Shown here: in pieces, positions 1 through 51,294 of the stretch | Numbering within the stretch: the stretch's first letter is position 1 | How the letters are laid out: each line of letters starts with the position of its first letter | Origin: Candidatus Nomurabacteria bacterium | Lineage (GTDB): Bacteria > Patescibacteriota > Minisyncoccia > Phycocordibacterales > UBA918 | DNA length: 64,000 nucleotides | Direction of reading: 5' to 3' | Assembly: GCA_023898525.1 (NCBI GenBank) | Contig: CP060227.1 | Location: 429,634-493,633, forward strand | Position numbers and translations under genes: made by a program | Notes under the pieces: model-generated | The model's input: the letters and a program-made list of their open reading frames with translations, nothing else | Database searches by the model: none | Told to the model about the DNA's origin: nothing

Positions 1-118
1 CTGCAGGTAGGCGGCATCTTTACCGCCATTGTATTTTCACCGAGCAGGTCCTCGAGACAGTTTCCCACTCGTTACGCCATTCGTGCACGTCGGAACTTAC
101 CCGACAAGGAAATACGCT

Positions 119-390: not shown

Positions 391-1147
391 ACCTTAGAAC
401 GATTATAGTTATCGCTGACATTTACTGGGGCTTATACAGTCCAGCAATACAATCCGAAGATCATATCACCCCCCGTATTTAACCTTCCAGCATAGGTCAG
501 GCGTCACCCTCTATACATGGACTTACGTCTTCGCAGAGAGCTGTGTTTTTGTTAAACAGTCGGCAGGAAATCTTTCGCTGCGGCCCTTACCCCGAAGGGT
601 TTGGGCGGACCTTATCCCTAAGTTACGGTCGCTTTTTTGCCGAGTTCCTTGAGGACCTCTCACTCGTTCGCCTTAGTCTTCTCGACTCTACCACCTGTGT
701 CGGTTTGCGGTACGGAACCACTATGTTTAACCCAAACGAAGTTTTTCTCGGAAGCGTGCTCCTCAAATCGGTTTGACGAATCTCCCCTTCAGACTCACCT
801 TGGAGTATTGCCATGCGGATTTGCCTACATGACCTCCTCAGTGCTCCAGCACCAATCCAATAAGATGCTTTGAGTACAACACTCCGTCCCTCCATAGGAA
901 CATAGCAGTGTGCAGGAATATTAACCTGCTATCCATCGAGTCCCCCTTTCGGGATTCCCTTAGGACCGACTAACCCTTCGCTGATCACCATCGCAAAGGA
1001 AACCTCGGTATTTCGGCGGACGGGGGTCTCACCCGTCTTGCGGTTACTTGTGCCGGCATTCTCACTCCTCCTCGCTCCATCTTGGCTCCCGCCTTGAGTT
1101 CATCGCAGAGAAGGACGCTCTCCTACCACTTGTAGGCTTCATTGAGG

Positions 1148-1425
1148 ATCCGAGGACGAATCCTCGGAAAATTATTTTAACGAAATGTTTTTCTCATACT
1201 TCAAATTTTGAGACAGAATATGGTATTTTTTTGATACTTCTTTCAATACTTCCTTTGCTTTATTAACCGCTTCATCATGTCCAAAAGCTTTTATTGGGGC
1301 CTTTTCACGTTTAATAGAATTCGTAAAGCCTACCATCCTTGAAAAGAAACTATCGTTTATATAAGAATAATATAAAAAATACCCTTCCTCTTCTTTACTC
1401 ATTTTTTCCTCCTGTTATTTTACTT
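1148..1425 (-). other. Intervening sequence 2 in 23S rRNA helix 45 (~278 nt), flanked by a 19-bp perfect inverted repeat, carrying a protein-coding ORF
   Basis: tgtaggcttcattgagg (1131-1147) and cctcaatgaagcctaca (1426-1442) form an extended helix-45 stem. Everything between is absent from E. coli 23S, whose corresponding hairpin is GCAGCGACGCUUAUGCGUUGUUG. Helix 45 is a classical site for RNase III-excised IVS. Confidence 0.65.
1172..1402 (-). CDS. 76-aa protein encoded inside 23S IVS2; N-terminus resembles small GIY-YIG nucleases (YhbQ/UPF0213-like: FLY...G.T......R)
   Basis: The ORF lies fully within the insertion. A strong SD, AGGAGGAAAAAATG, sits upstream (revcomp of 1403-1416). The motif GYFLYYSYINDSFFSRMVGFTNSIKRE parallels the [24 protein letters not shown] of GIY-YIG family members. 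Confidence 0.45.
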   Translation of the reverse strand: MSKEEEGYFLYYSYINDSFFSRMVGFTNSIKREKAPIKAFGHDEAVNKAKEVLKEVSKKYHILSQNLKYEKNISLK

Positions 1426-1526
1426 CCTCAATGAAGCCTACAAATCCGCAGTTTCGGTAATATGCTTGAGCCCCGATCATCTTCGGCGCAAGGACTCTCG
1501 ACCAGTGAGCTGTTACGCTTTCTTTA

Positions 1527-1561
<35 letters not shown>

Positions 1562-2128
1562 TAGAGAATCCTCACCTCCTCACTTTGCACTGAGCATATA
1601 TTTAGGGACCTTAACTGGCGATCTGGGCTGTTTCCCTTTCGACCAATGGAGCTTCTCCCCCATAGTCTAACTGCCGCGCTGTAACCTACTGGTATTCGGA
1701 GTTTGATAAGAAAAGCGAGATTTCTCCCTGTCTTTTCTTTCCAGTGCTCTACCCCCAGAGGGATCACGCGACGCCAACCCTAAAGCTGTTTCGGAGAGAA
1801 CCAGCTATTACGGAATTCGATAAGCTTTTCACTCCTTACCACAAGTCATCCGATGGTTTTGTACGGCCAACCGGTTCGGGCCTCCACGACCTTTTACAGT
1901 CGCTTCACCCTGCTCATGGCAAGCTCATCCCGCTTCGGGTCGTACCCCTGCCCTATATTCGCGCTATTAACGCTCGCTTTCACTGTGCCTACGTGGGATT
2001 ACCACTTAAACAAAGGACAAAGGTACACTCGCCGGCTCATTCTTCAATAGGCACGCCGTCACCCAAGTAAACTTGAGCTCCGACTCCTTGTAGGTGTATG
2101 GTTTCAGATCTATTTCACTCCCCTCTCC

Positions 2129-2174
<46 letters not shown>

Positions 2175-3473
2175 TTCAAGAATATTTAGCCTTACCAGTT
2201 AGTACTGGTGGATTCACCCGAGCTATTCATGTCTCGGGCTACTCAGGAACAAAAACCAAAGAGATGTATATATTTCGAATACAGGACTATTACCTTCTAG
2301 GGTCGTACTTTCCAGTACATTTTCCTATATATACATTTTGTAACTCTTCGCAACTAAATGCCGTTTTTGCCCTACAACCCCATACATATAAATACGTATG
2401 GTTTGGGCTCTTCCCGTTTCGCTCGCCGCTACTAAGAGAATCGCAAGAACCTTCTTCCTAAACGTAATGGCGCTCTCGCACCACAGTTCAGGAATTTCTC
2501 CCTGAACTGGATGCTAAAGCATCCGTTCAGAAAGAAAGTTCCACTATTGCTTTCTATTCCTACAGGTACTGAGATGTTTCACTTCCCTGCGTACGCCTCC
2601 TCATACAAGGATCACTGCCGATGACAGCGGGGTTTCCCCATTCAGACATTTCCGGGTCAAAGGTTGATTGGCACCTCACCGAAACTTATCGCAGCCATTC
2701 CACGTCTTTCTTCGCTTCTTGAAGCCTAGGCATCCACCATACACCCTTACATTCCTGTAAGGAACGCTATACACCGTTTGGCTTTACGTTCGCTTACCTT
2801 CATGCTGTGCACCGCTGCACAATTTTTGAGTGTGTGTCTCTGCTTGAAAAAATACAGTAATTCAAACAGAGACGTGTCTCATCTAAAAGATGAGACGTTG
2901 TGTTTGATTTGTCGTGGACGAAAAGACCCTGTCCGAAGACATAAAATCTTTACACGACAAATCGGTTTACCTACAGTGTGAAAATCACGAAGTGATTTTC
3001 ACACTATTGCCACGCGCGCGTCGAACACGCGTGGACTTTTCGGAACAGACCTTATCAATCTGTTCCTTTTAGAATATGCGATTGCGTGGTCTTTGCCACA
3101 CAACCCCCAATCACTTGATCAGGCGACAGAAAGTATGAACATGAATCATATTCGCACTTTCTGTCGCTCGACTTCAGTTCTTGAGAATTGTCAACGATCG
3201 CGTACCTCCGTAAGTTTAGTTTAAAAAAACCGCGTGACCGCGGGAAAGACGTAAAAACGAATTTCGCGCGATTAGCTATTTCTTGTTCCTAAACTCATAA
3301 ATACGTGAGCGCCATTGTATACGAATCAAAAATAAAGTCAAGCGTTTATTGTGGTTAAAAGTAGCCTACTTATGTACTTTTTATTCACAGTTTTATGCAC
3401 AATAAAAAATACCTTTGCGGTAGACCCTTTTTCAGCCACACAAACAAAATACAGCGCTTTTATTATTAGTAAA

Positions 3474-7449: not shown

Positions 7450-7968
7450 TTATTTCAAAGTCACTTTTGCGCCAGCCTCTTCAAGCTTAGCTTTCAAAGC
7501 TTCAGCGTCTTCCTTCTTCATTCCTTCCTTTACTACTGCTGGAGCGCCGTCTACCATCTCCTTAGCCTCTTTTAGACCAAGAGCTAGTACTTCCTTAACT
7601 GCCTTAATAACAGCAATCTTCTGTGCACCAGCATCAGTTAGCTCAACAGTGAACTCTGACTGTTCTTCAGCACCACCAGCTGCACCACCAGCTCCCGGAG
7701 CCGCTACCGCTACTGCAGCAGCTGATACACCAAAGCGCTTCTCTAACACCTTAACAAGCTCGTTAAGCTCTAGTACGCTCATTTTTTCTACCTTTTCAAC
7801 CAAGTCCTTGAACTCAGCCGGTACTTCAACTGATTCATCTACACCACTGTCAGTAGCTGTATCAGCTGCCGGAGTAGCTTCTTCTTTAGTTTCCTCAACT
7901 GGAGCAGCTTCTGCTGGAGTAGTAGTTTCTTCTACTGCCACGTCGTCTTTCTTTGTTTCTTCTGACAT
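7450..7968 (-). CDS. rplL: Ribosomal protein L7/L12; long ORF includes a 62-aa acidic N-terminal extension, alternative start at 7782
   Basis: C-terminal 110 aa ([19 protein letters not shown]...AGAKVTLK) is canonical bL12. The upstream in-frame 62 aa are E/T/A/P-rich low complexity. Confidence 0.85.
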
Positions 7969-8179: not shown

Positions 8180-8665
8180 TTATGTTTTCTTCTCCGCAAT
8201 AGCGTTTAAAGATATAACCAAACCTTGAATTGGAGAGTTGATTACATTAACAAACATACCACGTAGTACTTGGAGAGGTGGGATTGAAGCAATTTCAATC
8301 ATCTCATCCTGGCTCTTATAAACTCCTTGGAATACTCCACCAACGATAGAGATATTCTTCTTGAATTTATCTGAAAAGTCTTTGATATTTTGGGCTGGCG
8401 CAATCGCATCAGTACTGTATGCTACCGCAATTTCTCCCTCAAGAGTCGGCATTTCACCAGTAAAGGTGTCACCGAAAGCTCGCTTCATCAGAGTCTTTTT
8501 GGCTACAAAATAACCAACTCCATTTTCACGCAACTCCTTTCTCATTGCGGTTGTATCTGCAACAGTTAATCCATTGTAGTGGACAAAAACAATTGACTCA
8601 GAATTGTCACGAACCTCCTCTAGTTTGGCCAGAATATCTTGCTTCTTGGCTTTTGAAATGGCCAT
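8180..8665 (-). CDS. rplJ: Ribosomal protein L10
   Basis: 161 aa, typical uL10 pattern, directly upstream of rplL. Confidence 0.9.
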   Translation of the reverse strand: MAISKAKKQDILAKLEEVRDNSESIVFVHYNGLTVADTTAMRKELRENGVGYFVAKKTLMKRAFGDTFTGEMPTLEGEIAVAYSTDAIAPAQNIKDFSDKFKKNISIVGGVFQGVYKSQDEMIEIASIPPLQVLRGMFVNVINSPIQGLVISLNAIAEKKT

Positions 8666-8993: not shown

Positions 8994-9067
8994 CGGGGTG
9001 TAGCATAGTGGTAGTGTGCACGCATGGGGTGCGTGTGGCCCGAGTTCGATTCTCGGCATCCCGACCA
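8994..9067 (+). tRNA. tRNA-Pro (anticodon GGG)
   Basis: Manual fold of the 74-nt sequence cggggtgtag...catcccgacca. The acceptor stem is CGGGGTG/CATCCCG with the C1:G72 pair typical of bacterial tRNA-Pro. The anticodon stem is CACGC/GCGTG with loop ATGGGGT. The T-arm is CCGAG TTCGATT CTCGG, followed by discriminator A plus encoded CCA. Confidence 0.8.
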
Positions 9068-9118
9068 CAAATAAGTAAATGAGGTGCGGCCTACGGCCGC
9101 ACCTCATTTACTTATTTG
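9068..9118. terminator. 24-bp perfect hairpin (caaataagtaaatgaggtgcggcc tac ggccgcacctcatttacttatttg)
   Basis: Perfect inverted repeat between tRNA-Pro (+) and the DoxX gene (-); candidate bidirectional terminator. Confidence 0.6.
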
Positions 9119-9128
9119 TGGTCACTCA

Positions 9129-9673: not shown

Positions 9674-10162
9674 CTATTCTTTGTTCTTTTTATCTAAATA
9701 TTCTGCACTATTACCAACTAAAGTACCGACATTCTGCAAAAAAGTTGCCACTGCTGACACAGCCAGAATCACAACTGGTATCACCGCATATGATGTAAGC
9801 AGATAGAAGAACACAACCGTGGCCCCCATCCAGATACCCAAACAAGCTGGACAACCAAGCAAATCTGCCAGCGTACGTCTAGGGCCAGTGGTAGGTTTTA
9901 CCAACTCAAAACCTCTACCCACCTTCTTCAAATCCCAGAACTGTTCGCGAAAAAAACGCATGATTATGTCATAAGCAAAGAGCCGGATTAGTCGCCAAGT
10001 TGCTAATGTCATTAAAACATAATCAATCGGCTTAAGTTCCTCCTCCAAAAAACGTGACTCCGTTTGGAGTATAATTATCCCCATCACCACCAGTGCTAAA
10101 AAGAAAATGGAGAAAACAAAATTCCAAAAGTACTGATCAGTAATACGTATCATATACACCAA
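9674..10162 (-). CDS. Hypothetical membrane protein (DUF1360-like; CPAC motif)
   Basis: 162 aa with TM segments and LGCPACLGIWMG. Confidence 0.4.
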   Translation of the reverse strand: MVYMIRITDQYFWNFVFSIFFLALVVMGIIILQTESRFLEEELKPIDYVLMTLATWRLIRLFAYDIIMRFFREQFWDLKKVGRGFELVKPTTGPRRTLADLLGCPACLGIWMGATVVFFYLLTSYAVIPVVILAVSAVATFLQNVGTLVGNSAEYLDKKNKE

Positions 10163-10322: not shown

Positions 10323-10364
10323 CCAAGGGTAACCCTAGGCAAGTCTGCCTAGGGTTACCCTTGG
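10323..10364. repeat. REP-like perfect palindrome (ccaagggtaaccctaggca agtc tgcctagggttacccttgg)
   Basis: 19-bp perfect arms, 20 bp 3' of the RAYT-like transposase gene. A near-identical element occurs at 14054-14110. Confidence 0.7.
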
Positions 10365-14053: not shown

Positions 14054-14110
14054 AAAACGGTCAAGGGTAACCCTAGGCAAGCTTACCTAGGGTTACCCTT
14101 GACCGTTTTT
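14054..14110. repeat. REP-like palindrome, second copy (aaaaacggtcaagggtaaccctagg ... cctagggttacccttgaccgttttt)
   Basis: Shares the caagggtaaccctagg core with the element at 10323-10364. Confidence 0.7.
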
Positions 14111-24079: not shown

Positions 24080-27000
24080 ATGACAACTCTTACTGTAATC
24101 CCTGATGGTACCATCAGAGAAGGACAGAGCGCTATTTTTACGATCGTTCTCTCTGAACCTTTAACCGAAAGTGTTTTCTTTAGAGCCTCAACCATTACCA
24201 GTGGCGGAGCCTCCACAGCCGACGGTGATTATGAAGGATTTACCGACCGTATCTATGAAATACCAGCTGGTAAAACTAGTCTACAAATTGCCGTGTCGAC
24301 CTACCAAGCCGGAACTATCAATGAAGGAGTCGAAGCGATTGGTTTATGGGTAGACGATGTCTCTCCATCAAACATCAGTATTACTGATAGCGGTGTTGGT
24401 AGCGGTCGAGCTTTCGTCACTATTTTGGACCCCGTAGAAATACGAGTTAAGAATACCAACGGCTACGAAGGTGGCCAGGTGGGATTTATCGTAGAAGCGG
24501 AAAGTCCAGTACCTCACGACACTACCGTGTACCTACAGGTACAAGGCACAACTACCGCTGGCATAGCTAGTAATTCATGGTGGGTACAGGGTGTAATCAA
24601 AGCTGGTCAGACAGCAACCACCGTCAACATTAATACTGTGGAAGATGGTCAAACTTATGACACCCGCATTAATGTCAAATTATTCTCGTACCACGAAGAC
24701 GTTATGATCTTGGATGATACCGCCTATGGTACGGTATACAATACGACACAAGTACAAACCATACCCATTCTTGATATTTTCGCTGGGGGCGATGTAAACG
24801 AAGGTGATACAACAGTCTCGTACGCGAGATTGTCGACAGCCACCGACCATGATGTGACTTTTAGGGTCTCAACTTGGCTCGGCGATATGTCAGGTGACGC
24901 CAACCGAAATCCAGATAGTCCTGACTACGTTTCGTTTGTGAATCGTTCATTCACTATCAGAGCGGGCCAAACTACGGTACCAATACCGGTACAAACACTG
25001 CAAAATGACGACCCGACCGACTGGGCACAAGAAGTGTTTAGTATTCGAGTCGAACCAAACAGTGTTTCAGGTGCTACCTTAGGCCAAAGTCGCGCGGACA
25101 TCGTAATACATGATGTAGCAATCACGACAACACCGGATAACCAAAATTTAGAAGATTTGAGTATCTATAAAAATCTAATAAATACTCTTGTCGCTAAAGA
25201 AGGTATCTCAAAAACGGCTGACATAATCGCCGCTAGCAACACACTTAAGAGCGCCGCCCAATCACTTGAAGCCAGAGAATTGTTGGCAGCCGGTGTTTGG
25301 GATGCAACTGGCTTGGGTGCCATTGGTGGGATAGAAACTTATCTTGACTACCTTAGCCTATTCCCTAGCACACTAGCATTCTTGATTCGGCCGGCTTACA
25401 AAGCCGCAACCGGCCTAGATTTGTTTGATTCCATAAATTACAGTGAACTGGTTAATATTCCAGGAGCAGTTGCTCCCAGTGGCATTATATTTACCGGAAA
25501 CCAAGTATTATATGAAGGCAAACAAATCATTACCGATAACGATAGAGTAAACTGGACAGCTGACCAAGCCCTAGCGATAGCGAATGGAGAGCTGACTGAG
25601 ATACTTAAGGCTGGAGATTATGTTGATGGGAGGTTGGTGATACATCAGCCTGTAATAGCTTTCGATAGCTCTGGAAATTTGGTTAAACATACGAGTTATC
25701 AAGGTCGCTATGATCCTGAAAGAACCTCTGTTATGTCTGGCTCAAAGACCGATAACGTTTCACATTATGATGAAAATGCACAAAGTTTTGATTGGAGTGG
25801 AAATGTAGCTGATACAGTTTATATAGTAGCTCCATTTGATGGTTATGTAGTTTATTCCACTGATACGTACGCTTCTAAAGAAGTGAGTAACGGTGGATTA
25901 GGCAACGTAATTACTTTGCGAGCTGAACAAAAAACCACAGACGGCAAGGATGTGTTTGTAACCTTTGCTCACATAAAGCAAGGTAGTATAACAAGCAACC
26001 TTATCACAACACCTAAGAACCCTCCCGAAACAGATACTTCAATACCAGTAAAAGCCGGTCAAGTGTTGGGTATCGTTGGTGACACCGGTGGTAATTGGCC
26101 AGTGCATCTGCATATGTTGGCAGGTAACAACACATCAACCTATGGCACTATGACGGCTAAAGCTGGGCTGCGTGAAGGTCAAGTCGACACCCCTCCAGTC
26201 TTCATGCTTTTTGAAGGGGCAAAAATAGCTACCCGTAGTGAATTAAACTCGGGTATACGCGAGCGAGGAGGCGACTTTAAGCAAGACATTGGTTTCCCTA
26301 TAGGTGACACAGATACTTCTAGTGGAGCCTACAGCGAAATCGGATTATCTAGTGATGAACCATTGGTAGCAAAAAATATAAGCTCTACTTTTACCAAAGG
26401 TGAATTCTACGAAATAAACCCTACCTTTTCTTCAACAGACTCAGGAGGCCAAGGCGGCGACTTTCCCACCCCAGACCCAATCTGGAACGGAACGGACACC
26501 GCCGAAACCAACGAGTACTGGCAGGACAAAGTTTCAGCCGTCAATGAATTTATCTACGCCGGTGGCGGTTATGATTTCATTCTCGCCTCTGGTGGAGATG
26601 ATGTAATTGACGGACAAGGTGATGGTGGACAAGTCAACCTCTTTGGTCCGGGAGCTATTCGCGCCAACTTCTCCGTCACTACTACAGGTGATGGTGGATA
26701 CCGAGTACATAGTATCGATGGTTCTTTTGGTACTGATAAGTACTACAATATCGACGGTATGTGGTTTGGTGGTTACGGCAATATCCCTGGAGCTTGGCAT
26801 AATATGAATGACTTAGTCATAAACACCTTTAATGATGGTGACGGTACTTTACCTTCAGTAGCCGATCCTTACGATGAGTTATTTGCCGGTACTTCAGGCG
26901 ATGATCTCATAATAGGTGGTACTGGTATTGATTGGTTTACCGCTACACCGGGGAATGACATTCTCTATGGTGGAGACGGAAAGAACGTCGACCAAAGCTG

Positions 27001-27205
27001 GAACCAGGTTAATTTCACCACCGCTCCCTTCTATGAAATGCAGTGGGGTTATGACATCGCCAGCGACTTGTTATTTTCTCGTCACCCTAACCTCGATCTT
27101 GATTCATACAACCGTGACATCACCGACTTCTGGTTTCAAGATGGTGGCTGGCACGGTCGAGCTGAACTTATTGGTCTAGCGTCTCCTGACTTTGTATTTG
27201 TGTAG
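24080..27205 (+). CDS. 1041-aa multidomain protein: three Calx-beta-like repeats, an M23 (LytM-type) peptidase domain, and C-terminal RTX-like Ca-binding repeats; no N-terminal signal peptide
   Basis: Calx-beta-like repeats span ~24080-25115 (ADGDYEGF, ATDHDVTF). The M23 domain spans ~25750-26150 (HYDEN ... GDTGGNWPVHLHM). GGxGxD-type repeats span ~26550-26960 (GGTGIDWFTATPGNDILYGGDGKN). Confidence 0.8.
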   Translation: MTTLTVIPDGTIREGQSAIFTIVLSEPLTESVFFRASTITSGGASTADGDYEGFTDRIYEIPAGKTSLQIAVSTYQAGTINEGVEAIGLWVDDVSPSNISITDSGVGSGRAFVTILDPVEIRVKNTNGYEGGQVGFIVEAESPVPHDTTVYLQVQGTTTAGIASNSWWVQGVIKAGQTATTVNINTVEDGQTYDTRINVKLFSYHEDVMILDDTAYGTVYNTTQVQTIPILDIFAGGDVNEGDTTVSYARLSTATDHDVTFRVSTWLGDMSGDANRNPDSPDYVSFVNRSFTIRAGQTTVPIPVQTLQNDDPTDWAQEVFSIRVEPNSVSGATLGQSRADIVIHDVAITTTPDNQNLEDLSIYKNLINTLVAKEGISKTADIIAASNTLKSAAQSLEARELLAAGVWDATGLGAIGGIETYLDYLSLFPSTLAFLIRPAYKAATGLDLFDSINYSELVNIPGAVAPSGIIFTGNQVLYEGKQIITDNDRVNWTADQALAIANGELTEILKAGDYVDGRLVIHQPVIAFDSSGNLVKHTSYQGRYDPERTSVMSGSKTDNVSHYDENAQSFDWSGNVADTVYIVAPFDGYVVYSTDTYASKEVSNGGLGNVITLRAEQKTTDGKDVFVTFAHIKQGSITSNLITTPKNPPETDTSIPVKAGQVLGIVGDTGGNWPVHLHMLAGNNTSTYGTMTAKAGLREGQVDTPPVFMLFEGAKIATRSELNSGIRERGGDFKQDIGFPIGDTDTSSGAYSEIGLSSDEPLVAKNISSTFTKGEFYEINPTFSSTDSGGQGGDFPTPDPIWNGTDTAETNEYWQDKVSAVNEFIYAGGGYDFILASGGDDVIDGQGDGGQVNLFGPGAIRANFSVTTTGDGGYRVHSIDGSFGTDKYYNIDGMWFGGYGNIPGAWHNMNDLVINTFNDGDGTLPSVADPYDELFAGTSGDDLIIGGTGIDWFTATPGNDILYGGDGKNVDQSWNQVNFTTAPFYEMQWGYDIASDLLFSRHPNLDLDSYNRDITDFWFQDGGWHGRAELIGLASPDFVFV

Positions 27206-27296
27206 TATTTGTTCTTTTTAACAGATCGCCTAGAAATTAGGCGATCTTTTCTTTTACCTAAGGCTGTGGTACGGTACGAACATGAAAAAGATTATA
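27008..27296 (+). repeat. Repeat copy 1 (~290 bp): last ~65 codons of the giant gene, its terminator hairpin, and the RBS/start of the next gene
   Basis: ~99% identical to 27953-28243 (3 mismatches seen by eye). Confidence 0.85.
27223..27255 (+). terminator. Terminator hairpin inside the repeat unit (agatcgcct agaaatt aggcgatct tttctttt)
   Basis: Perfect 9-bp stem plus T-run, 15 nt after the giant-gene stop. Identical copy at 28168-28200. Confidence 0.65.
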
Positions 27297-27953
27297 ATGA
27301 TAACTTTAGTAGCGGTTTTAGCGATAGCTGTATCAGCTTTTATAATATCAGATAATAATCAAGAGACTGAAGTAAATACTGTTGTATCAAACCCTGTTGA
27401 GGAGACTAAGTCTTCACAAAAGTCTACTTATACCAGCAATGAAATAGGTATTACTTTTACTTACGATAAAAGGTTTGGGCAGCCGAAATTTTTAGATTTT
27501 TCTAAATATTGTACAGAAATAAAAGCATCTGATGATAGAATTTGCCAAAATTTTCAAATTTTGTTTGGGGGAGATAATTCAAATCTAGCAGATGTAGCAA
27601 TTTTTGCTGTCAATAAAGTTCGCCTTGAAAGCAATGAGTTGAGTCAAATTGGGAAAGAGGGAGTGGCATTCCCTTGGCCACCAACAGAATCAATGTCAAT
27701 GGATGATGAATGTTTTGTTCCGGGAGTACCTAATTACTCCAATGGTAAATGTGAGTATGTTACAAAAAATAATATCCTTATGCGACACACTTATTTAGAT
27801 GTGCAAAACACAATAAATGATTTTCCTCGTTATGAATATAGTTTTTATGTACCAGATAAAGACTTAGGAGTTGTTATTTACACAAAGGAACATGACTCTG
27901 AAAACCATATTGACTTTATAGAAAGAATAACAGAAAGTCTGAGTTTGAATTAG
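27282..27953 (+). CDS. Cassette gene A: signal-anchored, Cys-containing secreted protein (candidate immunity protein)
   Basis: 223 aa starting MKKIIMITLVAVLAIAVSAF. Preceded by repeat copy 1; its stop is followed immediately by repeat copy 2. Confidence 0.6.
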   Translation: MKKIIMITLVAVLAIAVSAFIISDNNQETEVNTVVSNPVEETKSSQKSTYTSNEIGITFTYDKRFGQPKFLDFSKYCTEIKASDDRICQNFQILFGGDNSNLADVAIFAVNKVRLESNELSQIGKEGVAFPWPPTESMSMDDECFVPGVPNYSNGKCEYVTKNNILMRHTYLDVQNTINDFPRYEYSFYVPDKDLGVVIYTKEHDSENHIDFIERITESLSLN

Positions 27954-28243
27954 ATTTCACCACCGCTCCCTTCTCTGAAATACAGTGGGGTTATGACATC
28001 GCCAGCGACTTGTTATTTTCTCGTCACCCTAACCTCGATCTTGATTCATACAACCGTGACATCACCGACTTCTGGTTTCAAGATGGTGGGTGGCACGGTC
28101 GAGCTGAACTTATTGGTCTAGCGTCTCCTGACTTTGTGTTTGTGTAGTATTTGTTCTTTTTAACAGATCGCCTAGAAATTAGGCGATCTTTTCTTTTACC
28201 TAAGGCTGTGGTACGGTACGAACATGAAAAAGTTAATACTTAT
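27953..28243 (+). repeat. Repeat copy 2 (~290 bp); encodes an orphan start-less C-terminal fragment (...DFTTAPFSEIQWGYD...GLASPDFVFV*) in a frame different from gene A
   Basis: Near-identical to 27008-27296. Confidence 0.85.
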
Positions 28244-28907
28244 AATCTTAGGTATAGTTATGTTAGTGACGGCAGGACTTTTGCTAAACAACACGCAATA
28301 TCAGATACAAGACGACCTTGATTTATCAGAATCAACTTCTACTATTGGTGTACTCGGTATACCAAAACCACTGACCTTAGCTTCGTTGGAAGCTAGAGAG
28401 GACTGGAACCCAACCATGGAAATAGAAGGTATGGTTAGGGTGGAAGATGGAGTGGCGGAATTGTCGGATAAAGAGAAAAAAATTAAAAAGCATAATATTC
28501 ATTTTTCACAATTAAACGATAGTTTTGTTACCGTTCTCCACTACGACGATGATTTTGAAAGTGAGTTTTGTGCCAAAGAAATGATGAGTGACCTACCAAA
28601 CGTACCGCTCAAGTGTCCACGATATAAACCATCTGAATACAATGAATTTATTATTCTTTCCAAAGATACCGGTGAGGTACTACATAAGTATAGGCTTAGA
28701 GAGGGGTATTCGATGACTACAACTGCCGCTGTATTACTTGGCAGTACAATATCACCCGGTTTTGGTAGCGACGAAAACCTATATTTTCATATAGGCCGAA
28801 TAGACATGGTAGAGAGAGAAGAGACCATTACTTCATCATTTAGCTACACTCTTAACGTTGTTACCGGTGAAATAACATTGGGTTATGATAGTAAAAGTGT
28901 GCGGTAA
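28224..28907 (+). CDS. Cassette gene B: signal-anchored secreted protein (candidate immunity protein), unrelated in sequence to gene A
   Basis: 227 aa starting MKKLILIILGIVMLVTAGLLL. Same upstream repeat, RBS and start context as gene A. Confidence 0.6.
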   Translation: MKKLILIILGIVMLVTAGLLLNNTQYQIQDDLDLSESTSTIGVLGIPKPLTLASLEAREDWNPTMEIEGMVRVEDGVAELSDKEKKIKKHNIHFSQLNDSFVTVLHYDDDFESEFCAKEMMSDLPNVPLKCPRYKPSEYNEFIILSKDTGEVLHKYRLREGYSMTTTAAVLLGSTISPGFGSDENLYFHIGRIDMVEREETITSSFSYTLNVVTGEITLGYDSKSVR

Positions 28908-28984
28908 CTTTTTTGATAGAGTCGTTTGTTTTTCCTAAAAATGTGATGTGTTGCTGGGTATAAAAAGTGAAATGACACAGATGT

Positions 28985-29082
28985 CTACAACCGTGACATC
29001 ACCGACTTCTGGTTTCAGGATGGTGGCTGGCACGGTCGGGCTGATTTGATTGGTTTAGCTGATAGCACCTTTTTTGTGTAGT
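28985..29082 (+). repeat. Repeat copy 3 (degraded, ~100 bp, ~85% identity): orphan fragment ...YNRDITDFWFQDGGWHGRADLIGLADSTFFV*
   Basis: Aligned by eye to 27110-27205. Confidence 0.7.
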
Positions 29083-32438: not shown

Positions 32439-32470
32439 AGTATGGTTACTTTAGCATAGGTTTCGGTGGT

Positions 32471-32509
32471 AAAAAAGCGGACGGCGCCTGTGGCGCCGTC
32501 CGCTTTTTT
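32471..32509. terminator. Hairpin terminator (aaaaaagcggacggcgcc tgt ggcgccgtccgctttttt)
   Basis: Perfect 15-bp stem flanked by A6/T6, between glyQS and metG. Confidence 0.7.
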
Positions 32510-32528
32510 AATACAACCTATACATCTA

Positions 32529-35982: not shown

Positions 35983-36561
35983 TTAGAGGTGGCTATTCGC
36001 AACTGCGTTGTCTATTAGTTTCTTCATTTTTTCAGCTGACAACTCAGATTCATATTCAGCCAAGGTACTGGCCGGGGCCACCTTGAAGTTTTTGGGAATA
36101 TCTTTTGAATCAACATAGCCAAGCTCGTCCAAAATCCTTAATTGCACCGCCAATTCCAGAAAGCTGCGCTTTTGACACTCACTAATCAAAAGACGCGAGG
36201 CACCAACACAGAAGTCAAAAAGTAAAGAGTGCGCCTCCTCACCATGGACAAACCGCCTTAAGGTCTTCATAAGCATGACCACACTACCACGAGCCTCACG
36301 ACTCTTAGCTGTAGCAAAATAGTTTGGCCCTGGAACAACACTACCGATTCGCCAACCTTGCTTACCTTTCACTAAAGAGACTCTGATTTGAGAAAACTCT
36401 TGCAAGGCCGGCCGCTGCTTCGACCGCTCTTCGCGCACACTACGGGCAGTAGCATAGAGCATGCCTGCCTCACGGGTAAAAAGCACAAATACCTTATCAG
36501 CGGTATTGTGCAAAAAACTACCGCAAACTATCGCCTCTGTGATGTAGGTTTGGTATGACAT
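35983..36561 (-). CDS. recO: DNA repair protein RecO-like
   Basis: N-terminal OB-fold pattern (TEAIVCGSF...VFVLFTREAGMLYATARSVRE), 192 aa; abuts ileS. Confidence 0.5.
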   Translation of the reverse strand: MSYQTYITEAIVCGSFLHNTADKVFVLFTREAGMLYATARSVREERSKQRPALQEFSQIRVSLVKGKQGWRIGSVVPGPNYFATAKSREARGSVVMLMKTLRRFVHGEEAHSLLFDFCVGASRLLISECQKRSFLELAVQLRILDELGYVDSKDIPKNFKVAPASTLAEYESELSAEKMKKLIDNAVANSHL

Positions 36562-39500
36562 TAAACCTTAACAATAGAAATTAGGTATGAATTATCACCA
36601 ATTTGGATTTCTTTTCCTTTGGTTGTGGTAAATGTGATTTCTTTCGCTCCAACCACTTTCTTGATTATATCTAGCTGTGCTTTTACCATCTCCTCACCAG
36701 CTGGTGATGTGGCTATGGTCAGAGTAATTACGTCCTGGGGCTTGAGACCAGACTCTTTACGCATATCCTGTATAACCCTAATCAATTCACGCGCCTCTCC
36801 CTCCTGTTTCAATTCGGTAGTAATATTAGTGTCGAGTACCACTACTTCAGACTGAGTTTCGTTGACTGTAACCGTCTTTACATTAACCTCGTCTGCAATC
36901 ACACTTAATAACTCTGAATCAACCGGTTTAGAGACCGACAAAGACGACAGTGGTTGTCGTACCTTTATTCCAGATCGTGTGCGCTGCTCCAAAGCCAAGG
37001 TCACTAATTCACGGGTAGTCCTCATACAATCAAGTAAAACTTCATTAACAGACCCGGTCTCTGGCCACTTAGCCAAGTGCACGCTCTCTGCCTCACTTTC
37101 ATCTCGCACTGCTCGGTATAGATATTCAGCGTAGAAAGGCATGGCCGGTGCCATTACCTTGGCTAATTCACGAAGGACATAGCGCAAGGTACCAAGCGCT
37201 AGCTTCTTGTCTTCCACATCCTCACCCTTGAGACGGTCACGTGAGCGGCGGAGATACCACACGGACAAATCATCAATAAAATCAGTAATTGGTCGCACGG
37301 CTTTATCGAGCTCATAAGCTTTGTAACCAGCAGTTGATTCGGCGATCAGTTGATTGAGGCGCGCCACGATCCAGCGATCTAAAACATTATTGGAATCGTG
37401 GCGCGGTTCGGAAGCCCCCCGGGCTTCCTCACCACCATCCGCAAACATTTCATACATCGCCAGTACATTATGAAGTCGTCCGATATTCTTCCGTTGTATT
37501 TCAAGCACGTCTTTTTCGGCGAAGCTCAAATCTTCACTATGCACTACCGGCGAAGACAAAAGATAATACCGCATCGAGTCTGCCCCCAAGCGACCCACGA
37601 GCTCCATCGGATCAGGATAGTTCTGCAATGACTTACTCATTTTCTTTCCATCCTCCGCCAAAACCAATCCGTTTACAATCACATTCTCATACGGCGACTT
37701 ACCAAAAAGCGCCACCCCTAAGACGAGCATGGAGTAAAACCACCCCCGAGTCTGATCTAGACCCTCAGCAATAAACTGCGCCGGGAAACGCTCTGCCTCG
37801 AACTTTTCCTTATTTTCAAACGGATAATGAAGCTGCCCATACGGCACCGACCCACTCTCAAACCAACAGTCAAAGACATCCGGCACTCGCTTTAATTCCT
37901 CCCCGTCTTCATACAACTTAATATCGTCGATATATGGTCGATGATAATCGAGTTCGTAGCTGTCGTTATGAGGAAATGGCACAAACGGCAAAGCTCTGAG
38001 CTCTGCGTTATTTAAGTCGTAGGTATTTTCCTCAATAATCTTTCCTAAAGTTTCAAAATCATCACCTTTGGCGACCGCTTGCAACATCTGCAAAGTCCCG
38101 TTATGAGAAACAAACAAAACATTCTTATCCTTATGCTTTGTTTCAATTTCATTCAACAATTCACCCGCTCGTCTTTTCACATCCGTCCAGTTTTCTCCTC
38201 CTTCTGGAGTTTTGGTCAAACGATCAGTTCCAGTCGTAAAAAAAGCGTGATATTCACTTACAGTCTTGCCATCAAATTCACCAAACCGTACTTCAAGCAA
38301 ACGTTCGTCCGCCACTAAAACCTCCTTAGACAAACCTAGTCCTTCCGCTACTTTCTCTGCCGTTTCTTTCGTGCGTTGTAGTGGAGAATAATAAATAAGA
38401 TCAATCTTTTCGGCTTTTAGTTTTTCTACCAACTCACTTACCTGCTCTTTACCTTTATCAGTAATACCATTCTCAACCGCCACATCCACATTTAAAGTCT
38501 CTTTGGTATTCAAAGCTGATTCAGCGTGACGGGTAATAAAGTATTTATTGCCACTTTTGGGCACAAATTCCTGCATCTCAGCCATGCTACCGAACACCTT
38601 ATATTCACCAGTCTTTTCATTTTTCCAGATCGGCAGTGGCGCACCCCAATAACGCTGCCTAGACACCGCCCAGTCGCGTGCCCCTTCCAGCCACTTGCCA
38701 AAGCGGTTTTGTCCGACATAATCCGGCACCCACTTCACTTTATTATTGGCGGCCACCAACTCATCTCTCATGTCAGTTACTTTCACAAACCACGATGTAG
38801 TCGCGTAATTTAAAAGCGGTGTGCTGTCGCGCCAACAATGCGGGTAACTGTGAGTGATATTTTCTTTCTTGAAAATCTTTCCAGCTGTTTGTAGGTGACG
38901 CAAGACTTCAATATCCGCATCCAAGTGCGACACCCGAGCTTCATCGTCATCTTTTGGCTTCACTAATTGCCCAGCAAAGTCAGTCACAAAATCCATAAAC
39001 CGCCCACCATAATCAACATGGTGTGCGATAGGAATATTATTTTCCTTAGCTACATTCATATCGTCCTCACCATAAGCCGGCGCCAAATGCACGACCCCAG
39101 TCCCCTCCTCACCAATTTCGACAAAATCCGCGTGGTAAATCTTCCAAGCTTTTTTTTCTTTTTCTTTCTCCTCATTAAAATCATCTATTCTTTTTGGGCC
39201 TCTAGGTGTTGCCCATAAATTTTCAAAGTAATTGAACGGTGGCTCGTATGACAGATCTAGCAAGTCTGAACCTTTCATTTCCTCTACCACCTCATAAGGC
39301 AAATCACCCAATTGAGCCAATCGACCTTTGGCTAAAATTACATTCTCGTATTTAATTTCCTTTTTTATTTCTCCATCAGCACCCACTCTGTCAGGAATAG
39401 TTGAGTTTAGAACAGAAACCTTCACATAATCCAACTCTTGATTGACCGCAATTGCCATATTACCTGGCAAAGTCCACGGGGTCGTCGTCCAAATCAAGAT

Positions 39501-40226
39501 ACTGGTATCAGTCTTATTACCGTTTTCATCCAGTAGTGGCATTTTGACCGTCACCGCGATATCCTTCACATCCTTATAACCTTGATTCACCTCAAAGTTA
39601 GACAAAGTCGTCCCACAGCGTGGACAAAGATGCATACTCTTAAATCCTTCATACACCAGCCCCTTTTCATGGAGTTGCTTAAATACCCACCACACACTTT
39701 CGGTGTAGTTTGAGTCCATGGTCTTGTAATCATTTTCCATGTCGACAAACCGACCAAGGCGCGGGATAATCTGTCGCCAATCATCCGCATACTCCAAGAC
39801 CGCCTCCCTAGCGGCTTCATTAAAATTCTTGATACCGTAGTCCTCGATATCTTTTTTGTTGGCTAGGCCAAGTTTTTTCTCAATCAAGTTCTCCAGGGGC
39901 AAACCATGACAATCCCAACCCCACTGCCGCCTTACGCGGTAGCCATTCATCGTCCAAAAACGCGGGATTGCATCTTTTATAGTGCCCGGCACTATATGAC
40001 CATAATGTGGCAAGCCAGTTGCAAACGGCGGTCCATCATAAAAAATATAATCTCCTTTAGGACTCTCTCCCGCCGGCTTCTCTACACTTTTATTAAAAAT
40101 ATCATTCTCCTCCCAAAAAGCCTGTACCTCTTCCTCCCGCAAAGCTACCTCAGACTTCTCTACTTCTTTCACCACCTCAACTGAATCGTTCTCACGACCG
40201 TGTACTTTTTTATCTTTCATATTCAA
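36561..40226 (-). CDS. ileS: Isoleucyl-tRNA synthetase with an embedded histidine-phosphatase (PGAM-like) domain (~170 aa insertion at 38037-38555)
   Basis: HYGH (LPHYGHIVPG) and KMSKSLQN class I motifs. Between the PIW block and HRPYIDD lies ITRHAES...SPLQRTKETA...VSHNGTL, matching histidine phosphatase signatures. Confidence 0.85.
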   Translation of the reverse strand: MNMKDKKVHGRENDSVEVVKEVEKSEVALREEEVQAFWEENDIFNKSVEKPAGESPKGDYIFYDGPPFATGLPHYGHIVPGTIKDAIPRFWTMNGYRVRRQWGWDCHGLPLENLIEKKLGLANKKDIEDYGIKNFNEAAREAVLEYADDWRQIIPRLGRFVDMENDYKTMDSNYTESVWWVFKQLHEKGLVYEGFKSMHLCPRCGTTLSNFEVNQGYKDVKDIAVTVKMPLLDENGNKTDTSILIWTTTPWTLPGNMAIAVNQELDYVKVSVLNSTIPDRVGADGEIKKEIKYENVILAKGRLAQLGDLPYEVVEEMKGSDLLDLSYEPPFNYFENLWATPRGPKRIDDFNEEKEKEKKAWKIYHADFVEIGEEGTGVVHLAPAYGEDDMNVAKENNIPIAHHVDYGGRFMDFVTDFAGQLVKPKDDDEARVSHLDADIEVLRHLQTAGKIFKKENITHSYPHCWRDSTPLLNYATTSWFVKVTDMRDELVAANNKVKWVPDYVGQNRFGKWLEGARDWAVSRQRYWGAPLPIWKNEKTGEYKVFGSMAEMQEFVPKSGNKYFITRHAESALNTKETLNVDVAVENGITDKGKEQVSELVEKLKAEKIDLIYYSPLQRTKETAEKVAEGLGLSKEVLVADERLLEVRFGEFDGKTVSEYHAFFTTGTDRLTKTPEGGENWTDVKRRAGELLNEIETKHKDKNVLFVSHNGTLQMLQAVAKGDDFETLGKIIEENTYDLNNAELRALPFVPFPHNDSYELDYHRPYIDDIKLYEDGEELKRVPDVFDCWFESGSVPYGQLHYPFENKEKFEAERFPAQFIAEGLDQTRGWFYSMLVLGVALFGKSPYENVIVNGLVLAEDGKKMSKSLQNYPDPMELVGRLGADSMRYYLLSSPVVHSEDLSFAEKDVLEIQRKNIGRLHNVLAMYEMFADGGEEARGASEPRHDSNNVLDRWIVARLNQLIAESTAGYKAYELDKAVRPITDFIDDLSVWYLRRSRDRLKGEDVEDKKLALGTLRYVLRELAKVMAPAMPFYAEYLYRAVRDESEAESVHLAKWPETGSVNEVLLDCMRTTRELVTLALEQRTRSGIKVRQPLSSLSVSKPVDSELLSVIADEVNVKTVTVNETQSEVVVLDTNITTELKQEGEARELIRVIQDMRKESGLKPQDVITLTIATSPAGEEMVKAQLDIIKKVVGAKEITFTTTKGKEIQIGDNSYLISIVKV

Positions 40227-40273
40227 ATTAGTTTTTATGTATATCAGACATATTACTTATTGAAGATTAAACC

Positions 40274-40358
40274 AAAGTAAAGAAAATAAAGGAGGTGCGA
40301 CCTTAAAGAGGAGCGATGAGCGACGAGAAAGGTCGTTCCTCAGTTATTTTCTTTACAA
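40274..40358. repeat. Long imperfect palindrome with conserved loop ttaaagaggagcgatgagcgacgagaaa; flanked by 18-bp direct repeats atgtATATCAGACATatt (40237-40255) and atgtGTATCAGACATgtt (40396-40413)
   Basis: Arms gtaaagaaaataaaggaggtgcgacc and ggtcgttcctcagttattttctttac. The loop is near-identical to the loop of the element at 50149-50218. Confidence 0.6.
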
Positions 40359-40547
40359 ATTAATAAGCTCAAATTTCAATAAATACTTAATAAACATGTG
40401 TATCAGACATGTTTTTACATACTATCATGAGTGGTGATTTTGGCTAGCCAAAAATATTGACATAAAAATATTTCTATTATATAAAAAAGGAGAAGTGTAC
40501 TTAAACAAAAACTTTCTAACACATTAAATCTATGTAAGGGAGAAAAA

Positions 40548-41126
40548 ATGGACATAGTAAATGATTGGTTTGATGCAAAAAATATCTTAACCTTAACAGG
40601 AGCAATAACCTCAGAAAAAACTAGCAACTTAGCCAGCAAAATGCTGGAGTTTCAAATTAAATCTGAATTAAAAGAAACTACAACAGAACCATTAGTATTA
40701 CTTATAAACAGTGGTGGTGGCGATATCATTTCAGCTTTAAAACTTTGTGACGTAATTAAATATGTTATTAAAAAACCTGTCAAAGGTATCGTAGTTGGCA
40801 GTTGTCATTCTGCAGCTACTTTGATTTTGCTGAGCTGTGAAATCAAAGTATGTCTACCTTATTCAGATTTTTTACTTCATTCCAACAGCGTAGCAAGAGT
40901 TACCGCCAGTACAGAAGAAGAATTAAGTCAACTACGAGAAGATTTGATTCTTACACGCAAAACCATTCTTTCGTATTACGAAAAAACCCTGAAGCTTAAT
41001 GTTGTTGAAATTGAAAAGTTGATGAATAAAGGAGATCAGACCTTTAATCGCTATATTTCACCCACAGAGGCGCTAAGTATAGGATTTATTGATGTAATTC
41101 AGCATGAAAACATCAATATATTTTGA
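40548..41126 (+). CDS. ClpP-family serine peptidase-like protein (orphan, divergent)
   Basis: INSGGGD (oxyanion region) and GSCHSAATLIL resemble ClpP/TepA-like folds; 192 aa, no adjacent clpX. Confidence 0.55.
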   Translation: MDIVNDWFDAKNILTLTGAITSEKTSNLASKMLEFQIKSELKETTTEPLVLLINSGGGDIISALKLCDVIKYVIKKPVKGIVVGSCHSAATLILLSCEIKVCLPYSDFLLHSNSVARVTASTEEELSQLREDLILTRKTILSYYEKTLKLNVVEIEKLMNKGDQTFNRYISPTEALSIGFIDVIQHENINIF

Positions 41127-50135: not shown

Positions 50136-50148
50136 CTAATTTGTATAG

Positions 50149-50218
50149 AAAACAACCAAGGGTAGACCTTAAAGAGGAGCGACTAGCGACGGGAAAGGTC
50201 TACCCTTGGTTGTTTTTT
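50149..50218. repeat. Long palindrome with conserved loop (aaaacaaccaagggtagacc ttaaagaggagcgactagcgacgggaaa ggtctacccttggttgtttttt); also acts as the folA terminator
   Basis: 16-20 bp perfect arms. The loop is ~90% identical to that of the element at 40274-40358, and the arm core aaccaagggta is shared with the REPs at 10323 and 14054. Confidence 0.65.
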
Positions 50219-50248
50219 GTTTTGGTTAACTTTAATTAGCACAGATGC

Positions 50249-51294
50249 CCCTATCTTGAATCACCACCCTAATTGCACAGACCATCACTTCCAAAATATC
50301 TGATGTGGAGACTTGAAATTATGTCTCTTTCTAGGACGATGATTTATACGACGAACCGCTTCAGAAAGTTCTTGTGGAGTAATGGTGTTGAAATCCAAGT
50401 CTTTCGGAAAATATTGTCGAAGTAGCCCGTTAGTATTTTCATTGGTACCACGCTCCCAAGAGTGGTATGGATAAGCAAAGTACACAGTCATACTCGTTTG
50501 TTTCTCAAACCGTTCCCAGTCACTGAACTCGGTACCGTTATCAAAGGTAGCGGTCTTTCGTTTGTTTTTGGGTATACGCCTGAATTTTTCCACCGCCAGT
50601 TTAGTGAGTAAAGTAGCATTTAATTTTGGCAGAAGATACGCAATTAGATACCCGCTTCTGCGATCAACGAAGGTGACAATACGTACTCGTTTGTCTCTTC
50701 CCAGCATAGTATCTCCCTCCCAATCTCCCAAACGGGAGCGACGTTCAATAATGGGCGGTCGTTCATCAATACGACGTTTCTTGGCTCTTTCACGAACTTT
50801 TTCACGTATTTTGGTGCCTCGTTTGCGCCGATACTTGCCTTTCTGAGAACGAAGAAATTGTTTAAGGTGTGGAGCTCGTTCGTTAATGTATCGGTAGATA
50901 GTGCTCGCAGAGATGTCATCACGTACTCCGACTATCTGTTCCGGTGAGTAGTGTTGTTTTAATAATCGTTTCACTTCTCGTAATAATACTCCTTTGAGTA
51001 TTCTAGTACCTTCCATAGCAATGATACGTGCCTGTTTTTTCTTTCTGCGAACCTCGCGAGCATCGTATCTATCCCGACCACCATACGCTTTAATATGTCT
51101 ATTAACCGCACTTGGATCTTTGTTGATAATGTGCGCAATCTCCACTCCTGAGTATCCCGCTTTGAGCATACGTGAAATAACCGGCCAGTCTTCCGGTCCT
51201 ATTTGTTTGTGTGACATACAAAAGCAGTATGTATGTCATCTTGACCTGTGCAATTAGGGTGCAAAGGATTGTGCAATTAGGGTGAGAATTCAGG
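50249..51294 (-). mobile_element. IS30-family insertion sequence (~1.05 kb)
   Basis: Terminal inverted repeats are cctatcttgaatcaccaccctaattgcacagacc (left) and the revcomp of ggattgtgcaattagggtgagaattcagg (right). The right end has an extra tandem copy of tgtgcaattagggtg. Confidence 0.7.
50285..51217 (-). CDS. IS30-family DDE transposase
   Basis: RSRLGDWEGDTMLG, NGTEF and ENTNGLLRQYFPK signature blocks, plus an N-terminal HTH. Confidence 0.85.
   Translation of the reverse strand: MSHKQIGPEDWPVISRMLKAGYSGVEIAHIINKDPSAVNRHIKAYGGRDRYDAREVRRKKKQARIIAMEGTRILKGVLLREVKRLLKQHYSPEQIVGVRDDISASTIYRYINERAPHLKQFLRSQKGKYRRKRGTKIREKVRERAKKRRIDERPPIIERRSRLGDWEGDTMLGRDKRVRIVTFVDRRSGYLIAYLLPKLNATLLTKLAVEKFRRIPKNKRKTATFDNGTEFSDWERFEKQTSMTVYFAYPYHSWERGTNENTNGLLRQYFPKDLDFNTITPQELSEAVRRINHRPRKRHNFKSPHQIFWK

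Follow-up and report, generated by a model that had tools for sequence, protein, structure and literature searches.

The intergenic region between ileS (36561..40220, minus strand, with its ATG at 40220) and a divergent clpP-like gene (40548-41126, plus strand), part of the 64,000-nt stretch of DNA analysed here (the window), is in our view, with a probability of about 60%, an ileS leader that carries two mimics of the tRNA-Ile anticodon arm and, in this lineage, a 131-bp palindrome inserted between them. The initial annotation had described a palindrome bracketed by 18-bp direct repeats; judging by the leaders of related genomes, these repeats are two conserved RNA hairpins of the ileS leader, the right-hand one being the distal and the left-hand one the proximal hairpin. 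We consider the chance slightly better than even that a clade of Patescibacteria (CPR) autoregulates IleRS through such paired mimics, a proposal built on analogy with the thrS operator of E. coli.

That bacterial aminoacyl-tRNA synthetases (aaRSs) can autoregulate their translation through tRNA mimicry is textbook knowledge. A 2023 identity review gives essentially a single bacterial case for it, E. coli thrS, in which two anticodon-arm mimics, a linker and the ribosome-binding region make up an operator through which ThrRS represses its own translation (PMC9976931).

Two conserved stem-loops in the ileS leader

On the ileS-sense (minus) strand, each of the two 18-bp repeats (40237-40254 and 40396-40413, identical at 16 of 18 positions) forms a stem-loop with the 7-nt loop CUGAUA(C/U). 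The repeats had been correctly recognized, and their spacing, given as 140 bp, is 141 bp between the copies or 159 bp from start to start. The distal anticodon-arm-like stem-loop (40392..40414, minus strand) presents the loop CUGAUAC (40406 to 40400) on a core stem of 5 bp, extended here to 8 bp; the proximal one (40236..40252, minus strand) presents CUGAUAU (40247 to 40241) on the stem UAUGU/ACAUA and ends 15 nt before the ileS AUG.

For comparison we collected the ileS upstream regions of three relatives recovered through protein hits (L008-L010) and of 80 metagenome loci whose IleS N-terminus is 72-85% identical. The relatives are labelled Candidatus Paceibacterota or Saccharibacteria, which places them in the Patescibacteria/CPR; the organisms of this clade are uncultured. 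The clpP-like protein has a single close homologue, at 94% identity, which pointed to a syntenic sister genome (L005, GCA_041389025.1). The hairpin pair, and with it the layout of two arms and a linker domain that defines a thrS-type operator, is found in 79 of 85 ileS leaders of related Patescibacteria. Across these 79 leaders the distal loop reads CTGATAC in 52 and CTGATAT in 27; its first six bases, CUGAUA, are invariant, and the stem beneath it varies freely (70 distinct distal hairpins). The proximal loop is CTGATAT in 59 leaders, CTGATAC in 14, CTGATTT in 5 and CTGATAA in 1, which amounts to CUGAUA(U/C) in 73 of 79.

The inner five pairs of the distal stem are 100% paired, with three to six pair types each; hairpins were selected with a filter of at least 4 pairs, a choice that raises the percentage paired and has no such effect on how many pair types are seen. 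Cells changed on both sides of this stem number 201, against 72.8 in shuffles (reached in 0 of 500), and the covariation score is 0.92, against 0.31 (again 0 of 500). Controls in which the distal stem was slid along the sequence pair in only 22-52% of cells. Past the fifth pair, pairing drops to 53-70%; what is conserved is therefore 5 bp of stem under a loop of 7 nt, as in an anticodon arm. Because one position of the distal stem is a G-U pair in 22 sequences, we assign the pairing to RNA of the ileS-sense strand.

The proximal hairpin is nearly invariant in sequence (AUGUCUGAUAUACAU), yet five of six pairs still show compensatory changes (0 of 500 shuffles). Its stem is weak and does not appear in minimum-energy folds, and its variants track base pairing rather than codon synonymy. 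A reading of the proximal hairpin as a uORF (AUG UCU GAU AUA CAU) was rejected, since the variants are compensatory and not synonymous, and include loss of the AUG.

The hairpin is highly specific to its location. It occurs 143 times in 539 kb, always in the ileS sense and in leaders with one exception, which lies in the window; permuted-loop controls gave 0-3. Hairpins are also present at loci that lack a clpP-like gene and have ileS behind argS in the same orientation, and they therefore belong to ileS and not to the divergent region, to which the initial annotation had attached them. The motif is absent from two more distant IleS relatives (52-55% identity) and, on this sequence sampling, is clade-limited. 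The linker between the hairpins is short in 43 loci (20-28 nt from loop to loop) and holds a variable hairpin in 34 (34-68 nt). With a loop-to-loop spacing of 159 nt, the window is an extreme outlier; its nearest counterpart, L015, has 150 nt.

Putative promoter and ribosome-binding region of ileS

A putative ileS promoter lies at 40419..40446 on the minus strand, with the -35 element TAGCCA (40446 to 40441), a 16-nt spacer and the extended -10 element TGATAGTAT (40427 to 40419), and transcription is predicted to start near 40412. The extended -10, TGnTAnnnT, is present in 73 of 73 distinct related leaders. In 71 the distance from its end to the distal loop is fixed at 11-13 nt, and the distal hairpin is therefore expected at the 5' end of the mRNA. 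Both hairpins are located between this conserved -10 and the ileS ATG, that is, given the predicted start, in the 5' leader.

At the other end of the leader, the distance from proximal stem to ATG is 4-18 nt in 63 of 66 leaders. The sequence between stem and ATG has an A+T content of 76%, and only 2 of the 66 leaders contain an SD-like 4-mer; the ileS gene of the window likewise has no Shine-Dalgarno sequence upstream. Gene callers at times misplace the ileS start at the AUG inside the proximal hairpin (for example in L009). Back to back with the ileS promoter stands a putative promoter of the clpP-like gene (40457..40485, plus strand; TTGACA, 17 nt, TATAAA), which was read from the sequence and is identical in L005; it is absent from the output of a strict consensus promoter scan.

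A candidate thrS-type operator for IleRS

The loop C-U-G-A-U-A-Y corresponds to U33, the tRNA-Ile anticodon G34-A35-U36, and A37. GAU is the anticodon of the major tRNA-Ile. Each hairpin thus has the makeup of an anticodon arm (5-bp stem, 7-nt loop, U33, cognate anticodon, purine at 37), and its loop fits the rule Y-U-GAU-R-N on a 5-bp stem, which by our own calculation a random heptamer would do with a chance of about 1/1000. The anticodon bases and position 37 are strong identity determinants for IleRS (PMC9976931).

We read the leader hairpins as a translational operator of the E. coli thrS type, by which IleRS would repress its own mRNA. Structurally, membership in the thrS class of synthetase operators is well supported; the function would follow by analogy. 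The anticodon-like loops and the thrS-like layout lead us to propose that surplus IleRS binds the mimics and blocks the 30S subunit. In this scheme the ileS mRNA would start at the conserved extended -10 promoter with the distal hairpin at its 5' end, and the proximal hairpin would lie in A/U-rich sequence devoid of a Shine-Dalgarno motif, 4-18 nt ahead of the AUG. Binding of surplus IleRS to the anticodon-arm mimics would then block 30S binding, and tRNA-Ile, by competing for IleRS, would relieve the repression. Several observations count against an operator. IleRS is a monomer, as opposed to the dimeric ThrRS, so the model gives no reason for two mimics. Position 38 of the loop is C or U, where E. 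coli tRNA-Ile has A. Minimum-energy folding misses the proximal stem, which is too weak. No tRNA-Ile gene of these organisms was found for comparison with the hairpins.

The resemblance to thrS extends to location in the 5' leader of the synthetase's own gene, to two stem-loops with a cognate anticodon-like loop and a linker domain between them, and to an arm nearest the AUG that adjoins the ribosome-binding region (PMC9976931). The differences are a class I monomeric IleRS here versus a class II dimeric ThrRS, no sequence homology, an ileS leader without a Shine-Dalgarno sequence, a distal arm predicted at the very 5' end of the mRNA, and restriction to one clade of Patescibacteria. The ileS T-box riboswitches of Firmicutes and Actinobacteria are likewise ileS leader RNAs that read the tRNA-Ile system, but a T-box binds tRNA by a codon-like specifier together with a T-box/NCCA contact, whereas the hairpin loops described here carry the anticodon, and the leader consists of two minimal hairpins to which T-box models have no match. 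In keeping with this, the Stem I specifier, T-box sequence and antiterminator of a T-box were not found by the Rfam covariance model, and Rfam as a whole gave nothing relevant, whether at the gathering threshold for the whole window and 12 related loci or at E<=10 for 40150-40600 and one compact leader. Yeast AspRS, HisRS and other aaRS mRNAs share the principle of an anticodon mimic, placed in the mRNA of a synthetase and recognised by that enzyme (PMC9976931; see also PMC6542539), but they are eukaryotic and differ in the position of the mimic in the mRNA and in architecture. Neither an ileS anticodon-mimic leader nor the hairpin family treated below is described in the literature covered by our search, outside which most subscription-journal papers lie.

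We note in passing that anticodon mimics do not appear to be a general feature of the aaRS genes of this genome, an idea that we considered and dropped: the metG leader is short and without an analogue, and argS and a class II gene have almost no upstream spacer (judged from coordinates).

The most serious competitor accepts the CUGAUAY hairpins as real leader RNA and assigns them a ligand other than IleRS, be it another protein (a nuclease, a ribosomal protein or a tRNA-modifying enzyme), direct contact with tRNA, or a role as a 5'-end stabiliser. We regard it as unlikely, though the least so of the alternatives. The predicted place of the distal hairpin, right at the 5' end, is the classic one for a stabiliser, but a stabiliser has no need of six invariant loop bases that recur in both hairpins. 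Within the loop there is also AUA, an Ile codon, and there are two hairpins although IleRS is a monomer; against this, the loop matches the Y-U-GAU-R-N anticodon-loop rule on a 5-bp stem, the hairpins occur at ileS only (metG has no comparable structure), T-box features are absent, and Rfam has no match.

Far less probable is that the palindromic repeats are DNA operators, bound by a transcription factor that serves the divergent promoters of ileS and the clpP-like gene. Both repeats are indeed inverted, with arms of 5-8 bp and 7 bp between them, and the pair lies in a divergent intergenic region; however, the arms vary freely yet stay complementary around a 7-nt centre that alone is invariant, G-U is tolerated on the ileS-sense strand only (where the other strand would have A-C mismatches), the sites lie downstream of the conserved -10 box of ileS, and they persist where ileS follows argS on the same strand and the clpP-like gene is absent. 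The earlier suggestion of paired operators therefore survives in spirit, as a candidate regulatory pair, but not in kind, the pair being made of RNA stem-loops of the ileS leader rather than DNA sites.

Some IS30-type elements duplicate long inverted-repeat targets. The suggestion that the 18-bp repeats are the target-site duplication of a MITE can nevertheless be dismissed, because, although they directly flank the palindrome, are identical at 16 of 18 positions and have an IS30-family element in the same window (50257-51292), the empty site of L005 already refutes it by holding both repeats 25 bp apart, about 79 related genomes carry both upstream of ileS without the element, and the IS30 ends are unrelated to the ends of the element.

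Should the operator reading prove true, the ileS leader would, as far as we have found, bring the bacterial aaRS operators of the thrS type to two, and no class I monomeric synthetase would have had one before; an independently evolved second example would show that such a solution evolves readily and is general. It would add an example from a different enzyme class, from reduced-genome, uncultured CPR bacteria, and with dozens of covarying sequences; it would offer a compact natural RNA ligand, a 17-nt hairpin, with which to probe anticodon recognition by IleRS; and it would explain how an essential gene that has no Shine-Dalgarno sequence is controlled in this clade. For annotation, the case is a warning that a conserved palindrome beside an aaRS gene need not be a DNA site or a transposon scar and may be an operator made of RNA.

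A palindrome inserted between the stem-loops

The sister genome L005 offers an empty site. Upstream of its ileS gene the sequence reads ATGTATATCAGACATATT-AATAAAC-ATGTGTATCAGACATGCT, so that both repeats are present, 25 bp apart, and the palindrome is absent. The initial annotation had proposed a check of related genomes for such a site with a single copy of the repeat; the element is indeed missing from L005, but two copies are kept there, not one. By BLAST, window positions 40228-40255 align with L005 7606-7633 at 100% identity, and positions 40387-40452 with L005 7631-7696 at 94%. The single TTA at L005 7631-7633 thus aligns both with a left copy (40253..40255) and with a right copy (40387..40389) in the window, and the 131-bp segment between them (40256..40386; given on the plus strand and here called E1) is therefore bracketed by a 3-bp duplication. 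A TTA at both junctions that occurs once in L005 is the combination of target-site duplication and empty site expected of a MITE; in A/T-rich DNA, a 3-bp TTA could also be due to chance or to deletion microhomology.

In L005 the short linker, GTTTATTAATATGTC, can be aligned base for base with those of the outgroup loci L010 and L074. The short state is therefore ancestral and the window carries the insertion, and we propose that a 131-bp palindrome with a TTA duplication entered the short linker between the mimics in the lineage of the window. The converse, that the long hairpin is an ancestral linker domain lost from L005 by deletion between TTA repeats, seems to us quite improbable. Linker hairpins do stand at the same position in 34 relatives, a 3-bp repeat can mediate deletion, and about 20 nt by a third copy of the promoter module in L005 loosely resemble the outer arm of E1 (not significant by BLAST). 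Set against these points are the base-for-base match of the L005 linker to the outgroups, the occurrence of the E1 core in copies at unrelated loci, and the 159-nt spacing that makes the window so extreme an outlier.

E1 has a core hairpin of about 80 nt, flanked by outer arms that pair imperfectly. Its outer 11-nt inverted repeat (40254-40264 and 40375-40385) is 91% complementary, as in the terminal inverted repeats of a MITE. The core (40277..40356, plus strand; 105.8 bits with our covariance model) is the only part common to other copies of the family treated below. It has a folding energy of -37.4 kcal/mol (z = -7.9), and its tip bears a conserved 28-nt apical loop, TTAAAGAGGAGCGATGAGCGACGAGAAA (40303..40330, plus strand), closed by GACC/GGTC. 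The palindrome reported earlier is real, with arms at 40277-40304 and 40329-40356, 28 nt long and 86% complementary, and 24 nt between them.

On the plus strand, which is antisense to ileS, the core folds 8 kcal/mol better. Within the ileS mRNA, E1 pairs with itself (-44 kcal/mol) without disturbing the distal hairpin, and the two mimics are therefore predicted to stay close, as with the linker hairpins of about 34 relatives. Most likely E1 is a tolerated passenger insertion. Against this, on the ileS-sense strand it is a strong hairpin followed by a U-rich tract, and it could terminate transcription of the essential ileS gene. If the operator reading holds, E1 would amount to a natural "linker expansion" experiment, in which the mimics tolerate separation by a self-folding domain.

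A small family of loop-bearing hairpins

The loop of E1 is shared, as had been noticed, with an element near 50 kb (40303-40330 versus 50169-50196, 25 of 28 positions identical), and the loop consensus matches exactly these two places in the window and none in shuffles. This sister hairpin, E2 (50143..50222, plus strand; loop 50169-50196), starts 8 nt past the stop codon of folA and has a T-run behind it. The two copies had been described as having different but perfectly paired arms; perfect pairing applies to E2 (22 of 22), while the E1 arms have 4 mismatches in 28, and the copies are not dissimilar, with 77% identity over 74 nt. The covariation signature claimed for the palindrome family comes down to compensatory changes at 5 of 26 stem pairs across three aligned copies, which is suggestive only.

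Extending the loop-motif search that the initial annotation had proposed added two further family copies to those of the window, both in another MAG (L001). L001a lies downstream of a GDSL-lipase gene, a position that it retains in a relative with 94% protein identity; L001b, a fourth and diverged copy with the loop TTAAAGAGGAGTGGTCAGTGACGAAAAAA, was found by the covariance model. The family as found thus has four distinct copies in two organisms. A loop-motif scan of 185,579 species genomes gave 1 match, in L001; the motif had 0 matches in JGI metagenomes and is absent from the 80 related loci, and in IMG/VR it gave 0, 1 and 0 matches, the single one lying inside a coding region and due to chance. 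Sub-motif matches in L034, L043 and L044, in or near coding regions, were likewise set aside as chance.

In each of the four copies, folding on the strand with the loop sequence UUAAAGAGGAG is favoured by 4-11 kcal/mol. Read in this stronger-folding orientation, E2 and L001a lie behind genes and have T-runs at their ends, and are therefore terminator-like; E1 has no upstream gene on its stronger-folding strand. With their position after stop codons, A-rich 5' flank, G+C-rich stem and T-run, E2 and the L001 copies resemble bidirectional intrinsic terminators (A-tract, G+C stem, U-tract), but the family loop of 24-28 nt is conserved in sequence and far above terminator loop size, and a terminator consensus scan that requires loops of 3-8 nt does not call the family hairpins, E1 included. 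The window holds many other long, perfect terminator-like hairpins. L005 has no hairpin after folA; the region is rearranged there and so is not a clean empty site.

Like the bacterial MITEs and palindromic repeats (Correia/CREE, ERIC, REP/BIME, RUP), E1 is short, non-coding, palindromic and intergenic, has a filled and an empty site with a short flanking duplication, and belongs to a family placed in transcribed leaders or as a terminator. In those families, however, the termini are conserved, whereas the E1 family shares only apical loop and core stem, with differing arms, very low copy number and no partner transposase found. Specifically, the copies have in common a core hairpin of about 75-80 nt, beyond which the flanks do not align, so that shared termini of the MITE kind are lacking; in the window we found no autonomous element with matching terminal repeats, the only IS there being the IS30-family element, whose inverted repeats are unrelated. 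The description as MITE-like is thus weak: it stands for an inserted palindrome with a clean empty site and a loop-bearing hairpin that forms a small repeat family, and not for shared element ends or a transposase that fits them. An IS30-derived MITE, or a long IS30-type target duplication, was also considered and rejected, as the inverted repeats mismatch and the empty site contradicts it.

Several hairpins resemble E1 and E2 in their stems, and the apex alone could be the shared mobile unit. A loop-less hairpin after tRNA-Pro (9059..9126, plus strand; 39.7 bits) has an inner stem, GAGGTGCGGCC, that resembles E1, and the stem of E2 resembles palindromes at 10324 and 14062. One account holds that the copies are ordinary, independent terminators that share only an apex of about 36 bp (GACC, the 28-nt loop, GGTC), acquired by gene conversion or through a cassette that targets the apex; we think this improbable, if a shade less so than an ancestral linker. 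In its favour, the inner stem of E1 matches the loop-less hairpin at 9063-9123 at 14 of 16 positions and E2 at only 9 of 16 (counted by eye), the E2 stem is like the palindromes at 10324 and 14062 (CAAGGGTA), the covariance model gives loop-less hairpins 30-40 bits, and homology between copies stops at the hairpin base. Yet it is the whole 131-bp hairpin, not the apex alone, that is missing at the ileS empty site, the two L001 copies share their stem sequence too (ATAACGGAGGG), and no hairpin was seen with and without the loop at one locus. That the 28-nt loop is itself a small cassette moving between hairpin tips is similarly doubtful. The E1 family would be of minor importance unless its loop proves functional. 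A small ORF in the loop was considered and rejected, since the SD-like GAGGAG of E1 is followed by an AUG that is absent in the other copies. The loop is purine-rich and built of near-tandem heptamers, with GAGCGAY occurring twice.

Repeated acceptance of extra DNA by the ileS leader

The ileS leader, which carries two anticodon-arm-like hairpins (distal, after the extended -10 box, and proximal, near the ATG), accepts extra DNA repeatedly across relatives. In the syntenic sister genome L005, a 63-nt module combining the ileS promoter with the distal hairpin occurs in three copies (7634-7696, 8503-8565, and 9844-9906; 81-84% identity), and copies of this module flank approximately 2.2 kb of extra DNA. 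Because the second copy adjoins the predicted start of a 271-aa ORF (for which there was no Pfam match), the module may have been co-opted, or else the leader could be a hot spot for insertions. The leaders of L018, L036, L038, L087, and L015 have large insertions of their own; the distance from the proximal hairpin to the ATG is 80-136 nt in the first four of these relatives, and the spacing between the two hairpins is 150 nt in L015.

Coding sequences of ileS and its divergent neighbour

The IleRS of this group (window 36561-40220, minus strand; also L005, L008, L094, and L095) contains a histidine-phosphatase domain (His_Phos_1) within the class I catalytic domain, as well as DUF5915 at the C-terminus. 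Gene calling splits ileS into two overlapping ORFs in several relatives, and in L009 the called start (4001) is an AUG lying within the proximal hairpin, the loop of which is degenerate in this leader (CUGACAGC). A start call of this type is an annotation artefact, and one to be expected in the clade.

On the other side of the divergent region, the ORF at 40548-41126 (plus strand) matches Pfam CLP_protease with E = 1e-18. Among 5.8 billion proteins, it has a single homologue cluster at E<=1e-10, and it is missing from the argS-ileS interval of the outgroups L008 and L009, which makes it a highly divergent ClpP-like gene of recent acquisition.

Upstream of metG (window 32439-32528, minus strand), we observed a terminator hairpin with perfect pairing, together with an extended -10 box, and found no anticodon-like hairpin. 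The box lies only ~12 nt from the ATG, and metG is essentially leaderless.

Mobile and repeated elements elsewhere in the window

Hairpin E2, the terminator-like hairpin after folA, lies 40 bp from an IS30-family insertion sequence (50257-51292) with 23-nt inverted repeats (87% complementary) and a transposase gene (50285-51217, minus strand) whose product has HTH domains as well as a Pfam rve domain. We saw no clear duplication of the target around this element, which is absent from L005, where the folA-rplK interval holds a different gene.

The stem of E2 is similar to that of a 40-nt perfect palindrome (CAAGGGTAACCCTAGGCAAG...) present in two copies (10324-10363 and 14062-14101; 93% identical), which constitute a further family of small palindromic repeats. 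Two short-read (Logan) contigs, L004 (end 3593) and L091 (end 988), stop within the hairpin of the E2 family or within the loop conserved in it, suggesting that such palindromes break assemblies. Three tandem units spaced ~940 bp apart (27012-29059; 92-99% identity over 74-298 nt) adjoin or overlap the end of a 1041-aa ORF (24080-27205).

Finally, the 23S rRNA match at 1-2760 (minus strand) spreads model positions 1-2075 over 2760 nt; the surplus of ~685 nt over the matched model span suggests that this gene holds an insertion or intron.
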